Shown piece after piece: positions 11,988 through 16,681 of a stretch of DNA of 16,845 nucleotides. The stretch lies in assembly GCF_003334315.1 (NCBI RefSeq), contig NZ_QOWR01000073.1; one strand, 5' to 3'. Both the position numbers and the translations under genes were made by a program. Position 1 is the first letter of the stretch. Each line of letters starts with the position of its first letter. A model generated the notes under the pieces. It was not told where the DNA came from, did not search any database, and worked only from the letters and a program-made list of their open reading frames with translations. The DNA comes from Escherichia coli (GTDB lineage: Bacteria > Pseudomonadota > Gammaproteobacteria > Enterobacterales > Enterobacteriaceae).

Positions 11988-12134
11988 ATTTCGTTTTGCA
12001 AATTGGGAATGTTTGCAATTATTTGCCACAGGTAACAAAAAACCAGTCCGCGAAGTTGATAGAATCCCATCATCTCGCACGGTCAAATGTGCTTTTTCAA
12101 ACACTCATCCGCATCACGATGTGAGGAAATTAAC

Positions 12135-13391
12135 ATGAATCTTAAGCTGCAGCTGAAAATCCTCTCTTTTCTGCAGTTCTGTCTGTGGGGAAGTTGGCTG
12201 ACGACCCTCGGTTCCTATATGTTTGTTACCCTGAAGTTTGACGGTGCTTCTATTGGCGCAGTTTATAGCTCACTGGGTATCGCCGCGGTCTTTATGCCTG
12301 CGCTGCTGGGGATTGTGGCCGACAAATGGTTAAGTGCGAAATGGGTATATGCCATTTGCCACACCATTGGCGCTATCACGCTGTTCATGGCGGCACAGGT
12401 CACGACGCCGGAGGCGATGTTCCTTGTGATATTGATTAACTCGTTTGCTTATATGCCAACGCTTGGGTTAATCAACACCATCTCTTACTATCGCCTGCAA
12501 AATGCCGGGATGGATATCGTTACTGACTTCCCGCCAATCCGTATCTGGGGCACCATCGGCTTTATCATGGCAATGTGGGTGGTGAGCCTGTCTGGCTTCG
12601 AATTAAGCCACATGCAGCTGTATATTGGCGCAGCTCTTTCCGCCGTTCTGGTTCTGTTTACCCTGACTCTGCCGCATATTCCGGTTGCTAAACAGCAAGC
12701 GAATCAGAGCTGGACAACCCTGCTGGGCCTCGATGCATTCGCGCTGTTTAAAAACAAGCGTATGGCAATCTTCTTCATCTTCTCAATGCTGCTGGGCGCG
12801 GAACTGCAGATTACCAACATGTTCGGTAATACCTTCCTGCACAGCTTCGACAAAGATCCGATGTTTGCCAGCAGCTTCATCGTGCAGCATGCGTCAATCA
12901 TCATGTCGATTTCGCAGATCTCTGAAACCCTGTTCATTCTGACCATCCCGTTCTTCTTAAGCCGCTACGGTATTAAGAACGTAATGATGATCAGTATTGT
13001 GGCGTGGATCCTGCGTTTTGCGCTGTTTGCTTACGGCGACCCGACTCCGTTCGGTACTGTACTGCTGGTACTGTCGATGATCGTTTACGGTTGCGCATTC
13101 GACTTCTTCAACATCTCTGGTTCGGTGTTTGTCGAAAAAGAAGTTAGCCCGGCAATTCGCGCCAGTGCACAAGGGATGTTCCTGATGATGACTAACGGCT
13201 TCGGCTGTATCCTCGGCGGCATCGTGAGCGGTAAAGTTGTTGAGATGTACACCCAAAACGGCATTACCGACTGGCAGACCGTATGGTTGATTTTCGCTGG
13301 TTACTCCGTGGTTCTGGCCTTCGCGTTCATGGCGATGTTCAAATATAAACACGTTCGTGTCCCGACAGGTACACAGACGGTTAGCCACTAA
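12135..13391 (+). CDS. nupG: Nucleoside:H+ symporter NupG (MFS-type transporter), 418 aa
   Basis: ORF 12087..13391; start trimmed to MNLKLQLKILSFLQFCLWGSWLTTLG... (ATG 12135) with SD gaggaa 8 nt upstream; 12-TM hydrophobic profile. Confidence 0.92.
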   Translation: MNLKLQLKILSFLQFCLWGSWLTTLGSYMFVTLKFDGASIGAVYSSLGIAAVFMPALLGIVADKWLSAKWVYAICHTIGAITLFMAAQVTTPEAMFLVILINSFAYMPTLGLINTISYYRLQNAGMDIVTDFPPIRIWGTIGFIMAMWVVSLSGFELSHMQLYIGAALSAVLVLFTLTLPHIPVAKQQANQSWTTLLGLDAFALFKNKRMAIFFIFSMLLGAELQITNMFGNTFLHSFDKDPMFASSFIVQHASIIMSISQISETLFILTIPFFLSRYGIKNVMMISIVAWILRFALFAYGDPTPFGTVLLVLSMIVYGCAFDFFNISGSVFVEKEVSPAIRASAQGMFLMMTNGFGCILGGIVSGKVVEMYTQNGITDWQTVWLIFAGYSVVLAFAFMAMFKYKHVRVPTGTQTVSH

Positions 13392-13440: not shown

Positions 13441-15576
13441 TTACTTCAACACATAACCGTACAACCGTTTCATGCCATCCGCATCGGTTTCGCTATAAAC
13501 ACCTTGCAGCTCCGGCGAAAATCCCGGCAACAAATTCACCCCTTCTTCCAGTGCAAGGAAATAACGTTGAACCGCCCCACCCCAGACTTCCCCGGGTACC
13601 ACGCAAAGCACGCCAGGTGGATAAGGCAACGCCCCTTCTGCCGCAATTCGCCCTTCGGCATCACGAATCCGCACCAACTCCACGTCACCGCGAATATAAG
13701 CGCTATGCGCATCCTGGGGGTTCATCACCACTGACGGGAAACTCTGCTGGCGGAACATCGCTTTTTGTAGGTCTTTGACGTCGAAACTGACATACAGATC
13801 GTGCATCTCCTGACACAACTGGCGCAGGGTGTAGTCGCGATAGCGCACCGGATACTTGTTATAAACGCTCGGCAACACCTCAACCAGCGGCGAGTCATCC
13901 TCAATATGCTGTTCAAATTGCGCCAGCATCGCCACCAGTTGTGCCAGCTTCTCGTGGCTTTCCGCCGGAGTTAATAAAAACAGAATGGAGTTGAGATCGC
14001 ACTTCTCCGGCACAATGCCGTTCTCACGCAGATAGTGCGCCAGAATCGTCGCCGGAACGCCAAAGTCGCTATATTCGCCGGTTTCGGCATCGATACCTGG
14101 TGTAGTGAGTAACAGCTTGCACGGATCAACAAAATACTGATCCGCGGCATATCCTTCAAAGCCGTGCCACTTCGCCCCCGGCTCAAAACTGAAAAAACGG
14201 CGGTCGCTGGCTAACACTGATGTCGGATAATCCTGCCACAATTTGCCATCAACAACGGGCGGGATAAACGGGCGGAACAGCTTACAGCGCGCAAGAATAG
14301 CCTTGCGCGCTTCAATCCCTATCTCAACACACTCAGCCCACAGCCGACGCCCACTCTCCCCTTCATGAATTTTGGCGTTAACATCCAGTGCAGCAAACAG
14401 CGGATAGAAAGGGCTGGTAGAAGCATGGAGCATAAAGGCGTTATTCAACCGCTTATGCGGGCAAAAACGCGCCTGTCCGCGGATATGGTTATCTTTTTTA
14501 TGGATCTGCGACGTCTGTGAGAATCCCGCCTGCTGTTTGTGCACCGACTGAGTCACAAAGATCCCCGGATCGTTTTCGTTAAGTTCTAACAGCAGCGGCG
14601 AGCTATCCGCCATCATCGGGATAAATTGTTCATAACCGACCCACGCGGAATCAAACAGAATGTAATCACACAGATGCCCAACGGTATCGATCACCTGACG
14701 GGCGTTATAGACAGTGCCGTCATAGGTTCCCAGCTGAATAATCGCCAGGCGATACGGGCGCGGCAGGTCGGCTTTTTCTGGCGCAACGTCGCGAATTTGC
14801 TGGCGCAGATACTCTTCATTAAAACAGTGCGCATCAATACCGCCAATGAAACCAAACGGGTTGCGTGAAGCTTCCAGATAGACCGGCGTCGCCCCCGCCT
14901 GAATCAGCGCGCCGTGATGATTCGACTTATGGTTGTTACGGTCGAAGAGCACCAGATCGCCACGCGTTAACAGCGCATTCGTCACCACTTTATTCGCTGC
15001 CGATGTGCCGTTCAGCACAAAATAGGTTTTATCGGCATGAAAGACTTTGGCTGCGAATTTCTGCGCATCTTTCGCCGATCCTTCATGAATAAGCAGATCG
15101 CCCAATTTTACGTCAGCGTTACACATATCGGCGCGAAAGACGTTCTCACCAAAGAAATCGTAAAAATGGCGTCCGGCAGGATGCTTTTTAAAAAACGCAC
15201 CATGTTGATGTCCAGGGCAAGCAAAGGTGCTGTTGCCCATCTCAACGTACTGCGTCAGCGTGTCATAAAACGGTGGCAGCAAATTCTCTTCATACTGACA
15301 GGCTGCGGATTCCAGCTCCAGCCACTGCTGCTCGTTGCCGTTGATTACCGCCGTAACGCCCGCAGGTAATTCAACAGCATGTTTGGAATACAAAAACACC
15401 GGTAGATGAAAACCGGTGCGCTTAAGCAACGCAAGAATGCCACTGCGACTATCCGCAGCGGTAATGACGACTGCCGCGACGTCCGTAAAATCAGTATCTC
15501 CCAACGCCACCACGCGACGATGAGAAGAAAGTCGGGATACCAGTTCACTACTGGCGGCAATATTCATTGATTTCAT
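13441..15576 (-). CDS. speC: Ornithine decarboxylase (constitutive/biosynthetic type), 711 aa
   Basis: ORF 13441..15636; start trimmed to MKSMNIAASSELVSRLSSHRRVVALGDTDF... (ATG 15576); Orn/Lys/Arg decarboxylase family with a PLP-lysine region. Confidence 0.9.
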   Translation of the reverse strand: MKSMNIAASSELVSRLSSHRRVVALGDTDFTDVAAVVITAADSRSGILALLKRTGFHLPVFLYSKHAVELPAGVTAVINGNEQQWLELESAACQYEENLLPPFYDTLTQYVEMGNSTFACPGHQHGAFFKKHPAGRHFYDFFGENVFRADMCNADVKLGDLLIHEGSAKDAQKFAAKVFHADKTYFVLNGTSAANKVVTNALLTRGDLVLFDRNNHKSNHHGALIQAGATPVYLEASRNPFGFIGGIDAHCFNEEYLRQQIRDVAPEKADLPRPYRLAIIQLGTYDGTVYNARQVIDTVGHLCDYILFDSAWVGYEQFIPMMADSSPLLLELNENDPGIFVTQSVHKQQAGFSQTSQIHKKDNHIRGQARFCPHKRLNNAFMLHASTSPFYPLFAALDVNAKIHEGESGRRLWAECVEIGIEARKAILARCKLFRPFIPPVVDGKLWQDYPTSVLASDRRFFSFEPGAKWHGFEGYAADQYFVDPCKLLLTTPGIDAETGEYSDFGVPATILAHYLRENGIVPEKCDLNSILFLLTPAESHEKLAQLVAMLAQFEQHIEDDSPLVEVLPSVYNKYPVRYRDYTLRQLCQEMHDLYVSFDVKDLQKAMFRQQSFPSVVMNPQDAHSAYIRGDVELVRIRDAEGRIAAEGALPYPPGVLCVVPGEVWGGAVQRYFLALEEGVNLLPGFSPELQGVYSETDADGMKRLYGYVLK

Positions 15577-15973
15577 AAGCGCAAACCCGTTTCGGGGAAG
15601 TAAGAATACCGGACAAGGTGGAAAACCCTGCCCCATGAGATATGGGTCAAACTGGTCACCAGCTCCGACCGCCAGACATCAGTAAAAGCAGAAACGCTCT
15701 GATTTTACTGTTGTCCTGCAGTGAGCGTGCGTTAACTTCACCGCATGAGCAGTAACATAGAAAGGGAAACGTTTCGCGCGAAACGGCGATAAGCGAGAGA
15801 ATGTAAGGAGATGGCGTGCATCGGGCAAACTCCGTACAGAGAGGAGAAAATTCGCGCAATCATGGCACCTTTCGCTAAAGCGTGCAAGCCAGGACTTTGC
15901 GAACAAACAAGCCATCGACGGCACCAAACGGTCATAATAAGAAAATCAAACAATACAGTTAACAGGAACTCTT

Positions 15974-16681
15974 GTGGTCATCGGCCCTTTTATCAACGCT
16001 AGTGCAGTATTACTGGGTGGCGTTCTCGGCGCACTGCTCAGCCAACGCTTACCGGAACGTATCCGCGTCTCCATGACATCTATTTTTGGTCTGGCATCGC
16101 TGGGGATTGGTATTTTACTAGTGGTGAAATGTGCCAACCTTCCAGCGATGGTTTTAGCTACGCTACTTGGCGCTCTAATTGGCGAAATTTGTTTGCTGGA
16201 GAAAGGTGTCAATACAGCAGTCGCCAAAGCACAAAATCTGTTTCGTCACTCACGTAAGAAGCCAGCGCATGAATCTTTTATTCAGAATTATGTCGCGATT
16301 ATTGTCCTGTTTTGCGCCAGCGGCACCGGGATCTTCGGGGCGATGAACGAAGGGATGACCGGCGATCCGAGTATTTTAATCGCCAAGTCATTTCTTGATT
16401 TCTTTACGGCGATGATCTTCGCCTGCTCGCTGGGTATTGCGGTATCGGTGATTAGTATCCCATTACTGATCATCCAGTTAACGCTGGCGTGGGCTGCCGC
16501 GCTGATTTTACCGCTGACCACACCGTCGATGATGGCAGACTTCAGCGCCGTAGGCGGTTTATTGCTGCTGGCAACCGGATTACGCATCTGTGGCATTAAA
16601 ATGTTCCCGGTGGTCAACATGCTTCCAGCACTCCTTCTGGCAATGCCGCTTTCCGCCGCCTGGACCGCCTGGTTTGCCTGA
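15974..16681 (+). CDS. yqgA: DUF554 family inner membrane protein YqgA
   Basis: 235 aa hydrophobic [25 protein letters not shown]...; apparent GTG start (no in-frame ATG between the upstream stop at 15938-15940 and 15974) with SD agga 6 nt upstream. Confidence 0.85.

Follow-up and report, generated by a model that had tools for sequence, protein, structure and literature searches.

The 397-bp gap between the divergently oriented genes speC and yqgA of Escherichia coli is probably made up of three parts: a speC promoter, a translated and structured speC leader of ~275 nt that acts in cis and depends on the upstream ORF (uORF) yqgH, and a weakly conserved side facing yqgA. By analogy, the leader is best read as an ORF-dependent cis-regulatory element of the kind found in speFL–speF or mdtU–mdtJI—without being homologous to either of them. 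yqgH is translated in E. coli, and the promoter, the Shine–Dalgarno (SD) sequence and ATG of the ORF, its reading frame and its end, the hairpins P1 and P3, and a further hairpin over the SD-like bases of speC are conserved. The region looks like a candidate for an uncharacterized control switch of speC.

In E. coli, putrescine is formed mainly by SpeC, an enzyme commonly described as "constitutive", even though its mRNA reacts to cadaverine as well as to inhibitors of translation. A conserved translated leader offers a concrete and easily mutated candidate for this control. The yqgH ORF, its annotation, and its translation are already known. The conservation of the whole leader, the helix-embedded ACC-ATG-CGG-TGA end of the ORF, the covarying hairpins P1 and P3, the SD hairpin, and the natural deletion variants appear to be undescribed; a literature search returned no description of the RNA architecture conserved in the speC leader or of its invariant ORF end.

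Layout of the locus

The window—the whole stretch of 16,845 nucleotides that was analyzed—is the E. coli nupG–speC–yqgA region. speC runs on the minus strand from an ATG at 15576 (MKSMNIAASS...) and yqgA on the plus strand from a GTG at 15974, so that the divergent pair with its 397-bp gap is arranged as the first-pass annotation of this DNA had described it. The same annotation saw no feature that would explain the gap, which is mistaken, because RefSeq annotates within it yqgH, a known and translated ORF. It had also held that the short ORFs of the gap lack convincing ribosome-binding sites. Mechanical ORFs of 63, 67, 71, and 82 aa do exist, but the real ORF is none of these: it is yqgH with its 27 codons and a good SD, overlooked because it is nested in the frame of a longer, TTG-initiated mechanical ORF.

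Three options had been offered for the gap, namely, a long structured speC 5′ UTR, a leader peptide, and an unannotated small RNA. The ~275-nt leader, whose hairpins carry compensatory changes, supports the first and the translated uORF yqgH supports the second, both as parts of a single element. For an independent small RNA, no evidence was found: Rfam gives no match, and the conserved block extends without a break between the promoter and the ATG of speC.

The window differs from MG1655 at a single position of the 411-nt intergenic alignment (15959; minus-strand A, G in MG1655), and experiments on MG1655 hence apply to it directly. Position 15959 itself falls in the nonconserved, yqgA-proximal part of the gap. 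By megablast, the region is found in 5,425 of 5,426 complete E. coli genomes.

Conservation and ownership of the leader

For the comparison, 80 speC loci with a SpeC identity of 75 to 97% were collected, one genome per species, and the 350 nt upstream of each were aligned. They stem from Escherichia, Citrobacter, Salmonella, Klebsiella, Enterobacter, Buttiauxella, Cedecea, Pantoea, Erwinia, Tatumella, and Mixta. As the SpeC protein search gave close relatives only, the range of the leader described here covers Enterobacteriaceae and Erwiniaceae.

Across 81 sequences from these two families, blocks of 80 to 99% identity are present, making the region far more conserved than a spacer. The conserved blocks alternate with free ones: the promoter, the SD–ATG of the ORF, the ORF end, and ~90 nt downstream of it are 70 to 99% conserved in the 81 leaders. 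In 32 of the 80 loci, yqgA is absent from the upstream sequence examined (up to 3 kb), and most of these loci keep the leader. The leader hence belongs to speC, since it is retained where yqgA is not a neighbor.

The predicted speC promoter

The predicted speC/yqgH promoter lies at 15859 to 15887 on the minus strand and is of the extended −10 class, with a −35 element TTGCAC (15887–15882), a 17-nt spacer ending in TG (15867–15866), and a −10 element CATGAT (15864–15859). Across genera, it takes the form TTGCAC-17 nt-TGnCAT(G/T)AT, and the promoter block AAAGGTG(C/A)CAT(G/T)ATTGCGCGAATTTTCTCC is 70 to 99% conserved in the 81 leaders. All natural variants of the leader, short forms included, have this block directly at their 5′ side. 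Transcription is predicted from the sequence to start near 15852 (3109431 in MG1655), where the conserved transcript start GCGCGAATTTTCTCC comes after a GC-rich discriminator; a mapped speC start site was not found in the literature.

The discriminator TGCGCG occupies 15853 to 15858 of the window (minus strand), where it separates the −10 element from the predicted start, and is conserved across genera. GC-rich discriminators of this kind are found at promoters repressed by ppGpp/DksA. ppGpp has been reported to lower SpeC synthesis, which together with the discriminator would be consistent with a growth-rate control at the speC promoter.

The upstream ORF yqgH

yqgH (b4785 in MG1655, as annotated by RefSeq) spans 15821 to 15738 on the minus strand—the strand of speC—with 84 nt making up 27 codons and a TGA stop. 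Its start is an internal ATG within the frame of the 71-aa TTG ORF, and it is preceded by the SD sequence GGAG (15833–15830) at a spacing of 8 nt. Profiling of start sites with Onc112 and retapamulin made yqgH (ORF22) an example of a bona fide small ORF (Weaver 2019), and its translation was independently recovered by the reporter-transposon method PIRT-seq. A search of the literature for a paper on the function of yqgH found none.

An equivalent ORF with SD and ATG is present in 69 of the 81 leaders. The openness of this frame is weak evidence for coding, as 53 of the 69 have an open +2 frame as well, and it was hence replaced by a frame test on start codons. This test assumes no frame and uses the 59 leaders in which both anchors are present. 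In 49 of these 59 leaders, the first ATG 3′ of the promoter block shares the frame of the conserved stop, as do 58 of 63 ATGs with an SD-like motif before them.

The body of the ORF is conserved neither in sequence nor in length, which ranges from 18 to 43 codons. This body is always C-rich and is G-poor (C 35%, G 20%). Arg makes up 10.8% of the internal codons, a mild enrichment given overall values of 9.1% and 7.6% in the two alternative frames; pairs of Arg residues are found in many of the inferred peptides, and a conserved run of Arg codons is absent from the inferred ORFs. NCBIfam has no family model for YqgH, which is uninformative because it has none for SpeFL either.

Within yqgH, a perfect palindrome CGTTTCGCGCGAAACG (15770–15785, minus strand) was flagged as terminator-like; it encodes RRFARN and is specific to Escherichia. 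One half of it, CCGUUUCG, is complementary to CGAAACGG in the hairpin adjoining the speC start of E. coli, and the minimum-energy fold of the E. coli leader pairs the two. As a general feature, such a pairing between the ORF body and the speC initiation region was judged weak: over 69 leaders, the duplex barely outperforms shuffled controls (mean z of −0.6, with 20% of the values below −1.64), and the sequences are interrelated.

The invariant ORF end and its helices

While the ORF body varies freely, its end is nearly fixed. In the 69 inferred ORFs, the terminal codon is CGG without exception, preceded by ATG in 64 and, one codon further upstream, by ACC in 50; the stop is TGA in 67. By comparison, CGG accounts for only 6 of 213 internal Arg codons. 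The conserved tail of the peptide reads LTMR.

In the window, the end ATG CGG TGA (15746–15738) coincides with hairpin P0a (15737–15752, minus strand), whose consensus CUCACC-AUGC-GGUGAG encloses the last codons together with the stop. In an alignment of 67 sequences, 89.5% of its pairs are formed and a few change on both sides. P0a is degenerate in Escherichia, which retains ATGCGGTGA despite the decayed 5′ arm.

The same ORF end takes part in a further helix. Region 2, GCUCACUGCA (15717–15726, minus strand), has two alternative partners: upstream, the ORF end UGCGGUGA, with which it forms helix P0, and downstream CGGUCGGAGC, with which it forms P1b. P0, the pairing of UGCGGUGA with UCACUGCA, is 92.3% paired versus 26 to 56% in slid controls; it shows zero double changes because its 5′ arm never varies. 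P0 and P1b are mutually exclusive since they share an arm (3′ in P0, 5′ in P1b), and both P0a and P0 contain the yqgH stop codon. Folding with the ribosome masked at the stop shifts P0 to P1b in Salmonella and Klebsiella and not in E. coli. The P0/P1b alternative might serve as a functional switch, on which these folding models are ambiguous.

Constraints on the peptide and on the RNA are inseparable at the ORF end, as the same bases form P0a and P0. Possibly, the LTMR tail has no function as a peptide motif and results from the P0a hairpin.

Hairpins between yqgH and speC

From the ORF stop to the speC ATG, the leader extends over 161 nt: about 90 nt of highly conserved RNA after the stop are followed by a variable stretch and then by the conserved translation initiation region of speC. 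It contains a long hairpin, P1 (15716–15674), which with its basal extension P1b covers 15662 to 15726 on the minus strand. Pairs were counted in the 67-sequence alignment, which comprises the ORF end and the next 100 nt. P1 and P1b together have 25 pairs, of which 96.7% are formed, and compensatory changes are frequent: 11 pairs change on both sides, as in the inner stem of P1, where an A-U pair becomes G-C in 10 sequences. The pairs of P1b are kept in 91 to 99% of the sequences with a few double changes, and the apical loop of P1 is variable. When P0a and P1/P1b were tested jointly, none of 500 shuffles reached the observed values, and slid controls paired to 30 to 51%. A covariance model scores 103 bits on the minus strand and 41 bits on the plus strand; these scores and the G-U pairs both favor the minus strand, and the structure is hence assigned to the sense strand of speC.

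Hairpin P2 (GCUG/CAGU; 15651–15663, minus strand) is weakly supported, being 97% paired in 43 sequences with one-sided changes only. Hairpin P3 (GGGCAGGGU/ACCUUGUCC; 15611–15633, minus strand) is followed by a U-rich tract and bears compensatory changes in most of its stem: in 43 Enterobacteriaceae, eight of its nine pairs change on both sides and 95% of the cells are paired. A pattern scan flagged P3 as terminator-like. Its U tract is interrupted and lies ~5 nt from the stem in many species, so that, read from the sequence, P3 might be an imperfect terminator; a conserved anti-terminator pairing with P3 was not found in the leader alignment.

The speC start itself has no good SD, as had been noted before; the sole purine-rich candidate is the GGG of ACGGGU. 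The palindrome cccgaaacggg, in minus-strand reading, is located at 15586 to 15596, 10 nt 5′ of the speC ATG at 15576, in the position described by the first-pass annotation, where an SD would normally sit. It forms a conserved small hairpin CCCG-AAA-CGGG on the minus strand that covers the only SD-like purines before this ATG. It has 3 to 4 bp and is 94% paired in the 43 Enterobacteriaceae, where all of its changes are wobbles. Its place is taken in Erwiniaceae, Buttiauxella, and Cedecea by another hairpin, AUCCU/GGGAU, over an SD GGGGA. For P2, P3, and the SD hairpin tested jointly, none of 500 shuffles matched the observed values.

A second palindrome reported earlier, cccatgagatatggg, is present, with coordinates that had to be moved by one base to 15632 to 15646; it is not conserved outside Escherichia. 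Two further candidates were rejected. A long-range helix CGCA/UGCG between the P0 loop and the speC start, proposed by RNAalifold, has one-sided changes only and 10 broken pairs. An N-terminal extension of SpeC from an ATG at 15636 fails because this codon is GTG, GTT, or ACG elsewhere.

Natural deletions

Several lineages have lost parts of the leader. In the Enterobacter cloacae group and Lelliottia (L020, L026, L028, and L039), only the promoter, a hairpin CUCACC-GUUC-GGUGAG, and the speC start are left. These short leaders are natural deletion forms (~45–50 nt; ~65 nt upstream of speC) with no ORF, P1, or P3, and Enterobacter asburiae (L022) retains the full leader. In Pseudocitrobacter (L018 and L021) and two Pantoea-like genomes (L070 and L076), the ORF with its end and P1 are missing and the promoter and 3′ hairpins are kept; the covariance model finds no match in these four leaders, which look like independent losses of the 5′ module. 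Escherichia sp. ESNIH1 (L024) and Trabulsiella (L063) carry an ORF ending in LTMR-TGA with its stop 22 and 63 nt from the speC ATG, respectively, and lack P1 to P3—a natural test of speC regulation by the ORF alone. Such partial losses across lineages are the pattern expected of a regulatory add-on and not of an essential part of the mRNA.

One of the Pantoea-like genomes, L076, is labeled Enterobacter ludwigii EnVs2. Its SpeC shares only 76% identity with the query from E. coli, its leader is nearly the same as in Pantoea sp. SOD02 (L070), and the species label hence looks wrong.

Comparison with known systems

In the speFL–speF system, an ornithine-sensing arrest peptide controls the main gene by Rho-dependent attenuation (Herrero del Valle 2020, Ben-Zvi 2019). 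The speC leader resembles it in several respects: the mRNA of one of the paralogous ornithine decarboxylases carries in its leader a short translated ORF whose last codon is Arg, the 3′ end of this ORF lies within an RNA hairpin, Arg codons of the rare type occur, and the ORF is separated from the main gene by a long structured spacer (161 nt for speC versus 257 nt for speF). However, the stop is UGA in YqgH and UAG in SpeFL, and the body of YqgH is not conserved. Ligand-dependent stalling and Rho dependence are features of speF that the speC leader may or may not share. By eye, RRF/FARN of YqgH might be likened to HIRR/FAHRN of SpeFL, a homology that was dismissed since BLASTP gives no alignment at E up to 100. 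The HIRRXXH motif is not visible in the 69 inferred peptides, and the covariance model of the speC leader has no match in the speF leader. YqgH is hence no member of the SpeFL family (DUF2618 homologues).

For mdtU–mdtJI, Adams 2021 gives experimental evidence for effects of spermidine, Rho, and uORF translation on expression. Here too, a gene of the polyamine pathway has a long 5′ UTR with a translated uORF, conservation is strongest at the C-terminus of the peptide, and the uORF stop lies ~100 to 160 nt upstream of the main ORF. A similarity of the peptides themselves was rejected, as the MdtU C-terminus ...EQHWRNAL is unrelated to LTMR. The translation-stress uORF sensors toiL–topAI, mgtL–mgtA, and corL–corA are a further point of comparison, for which tetracycline provides the link: Baniulyte and Wade group speC with mgtA and corA among uORF-associated genes whose ribosome-associated RNA, measured by ribosome profiling, rises >5-fold with tetracycline—for speC, this is one genome-wide observation.

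Polyamine-related uORFs are also found in eukaryotes, with the MAGDIS peptide of AMD1, the upstream conserved coding region of ODC/AZIN1, and the antizyme frameshift at a UGA. The likeness is purely conceptual: ahead of a gene for polyamine synthesis lies a short ORF whose C-terminal end or stop codon is critical. The translation machineries are unrelated, and there is no homology. The Rfam family RF00518 is the speF RNA motif of alpha-proteobacteria, a structured RNA upstream of an ornithine decarboxylase gene. Unlike this motif, the speC region matches no Rfam family: a search of Rfam 15 at E up to 10 returned four unrelated matches at chance level, all far below their gathering scores.

A possible mechanism and its alternatives

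In the mechanism that we propose, ribosomes would translate yqgH, whose body is free to vary, up to Thr-Met-Arg (with the rare CGG) and a UGA that are fixed inside an RNA helix. We infer that ribosome occupancy at this end decides how the downstream RNA folds, and that the same occupancy might decide whether Rho loads on the C-rich RNA of the ORF. The folding choice between P0/P0a and P1b, continued downstream in P2, P3, and the hairpin that covers the weak SD, would then set the amount of full-length, translatable speC mRNA. Of what is common to leaders controlled by uORFs, a translated same-strand ORF and an RNA structure overlapping its 3′ end are present; a premature termination might be served by the base composition of the ORF body given above and by the imperfect P3. 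The supplementary text of Adams 2021, as far as it could be searched, names neither a transcript 3′ end nor a Rho-dependent region in the vicinity of speC. As the signal, translation or polyamine status, the activity of release factor 2 (RF2) at the UGA, or the supply of Arg-tRNA(CCG) may be considered. The mRNA of speC is 3- to 5-fold higher without cadaverine synthesis, and this response and the one to tetracycline hint at translation or polyamine status as the signal.

More speculatively, the yqgH end—a rare CGG and a UGA read only by RF2, both in a helix—might be a sensor of termination or decoding speed that reports polyamine status. Under low polyamine, a reduced RF2 supply or termination efficiency would make the ribosome linger on CGG-UGA; the lingering ribosome would let the leader refold or exclude Rho, and speC would be switched on. 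This specific reading is unlikely on present evidence. If true, it would amount to a ribosome-based negative feedback on putrescine synthesis in Enterobacteriaceae and explain the long-known repression of speC mRNA by polyamines and cadaverine.

The alternatives differ in how much of the conserved leader they account for. That the gap is an ordinary spacer with two promoters and nothing else would agree with its length, as 397 bp is not extreme for a divergent gap in E. coli. The first-pass annotation had named poor conservation outside the promoter hexamers among the findings that would speak against a hidden feature; instead, ~250 nt are conserved at 70 to 99% across two families, with compensatory pairs and a validated translated ORF. 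Conservation and covariation already refute the spacer, which retains virtually no probability. An element consisting of RNA only deserves more weight: P1, P3, and the SD hairpin might bind a protein, an sRNA, or a metabolite, or stabilize the mRNA, with the translation of yqgH being incidental or modulatory. Conservation of the two P1 arms and of the 30 nt UUUUACUGAUGUCUGGCGGUCGGAGCUGG is tighter than pairing alone would demand, the E. cloacae group bears the P0a hairpin without any ORF, and the LTMR tail coincides with the P0a arms. However, SD–ATG and reading frame are conserved even though the ORF body varies freely, and Escherichia keeps ATGCGGTGA even though the 5′ arm of P0a has decayed; Rfam contains no match either. 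We consider this explanation unlikely.

The two remaining alternatives place the function in the peptide or in its codons. YqgH might be a small protein acting in trans with a function of its own that is merely co-transcribed with speC, as many small proteins do work in trans and a tagged small ORF of the YqgH class was detected in E. coli. However, a peptide of 18 to 43 aa that is conserved only in its last three to four residues, that matches no family model, and whose conservation peaks at the nucleotide level with third codon positions included makes this very improbable. A classical amino-acid attenuator, in which the Arg codons of yqgH sense the charging of Arg-tRNA and P3 is the intrinsic terminator, would agree with the invariant and rare terminal Arg codon, the frequent RR pairs, and the terminator-like flag on P3 and its U-rich tract. 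Its physiology fits as well, because with arginine in short supply putrescine is made through SpeC. Against it, the Arg codons form no conserved run and are little enriched over the other frames, the U tract after P3 is interrupted and offset, and no conserved anti-terminator was found. The codon cluster and the mutually exclusive hairpins ending in a U run that mark the trpL/hisL type are thus not found here, and an attenuator of this kind is improbable.

Possible relevance for polyamine control

If the yqgH-dependent leader is regulatory, it would join speFL and mdtU as a third regulator of the uORF type in the polyamine network of enterobacteria. The natural leader deletions of the Enterobacter cloacae group, Pseudocitrobacter, and some Pantoea provide ready comparison strains. 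There is also a practical side, as strains for putrescine production normally have the speC leader region replaced, its role not being recognized.

The yqgA-proximal side and minor observations

The rest of the gap (15888–15973, no strand assigned) is poorly conserved, with 0 to 30% across genera, and presumably holds the promoter and 5′ UTR of yqgA. A second sigma-70-like match, TTAACT-17-TATTAT, is located 5′ of the conserved speC promoter at 15962 to 15934 on the minus strand. Its sequence is not conserved across genera, and it could be an extra promoter specific to Escherichia or a chance match. At the other end of the locus, the mechanical ORF of nupG (12087–13391 of the window, plus strand) has 434 codons versus 418 in the MG1655 annotation; the 16 extra codons, which are not necessarily translated, represent upstream in-frame sequence.
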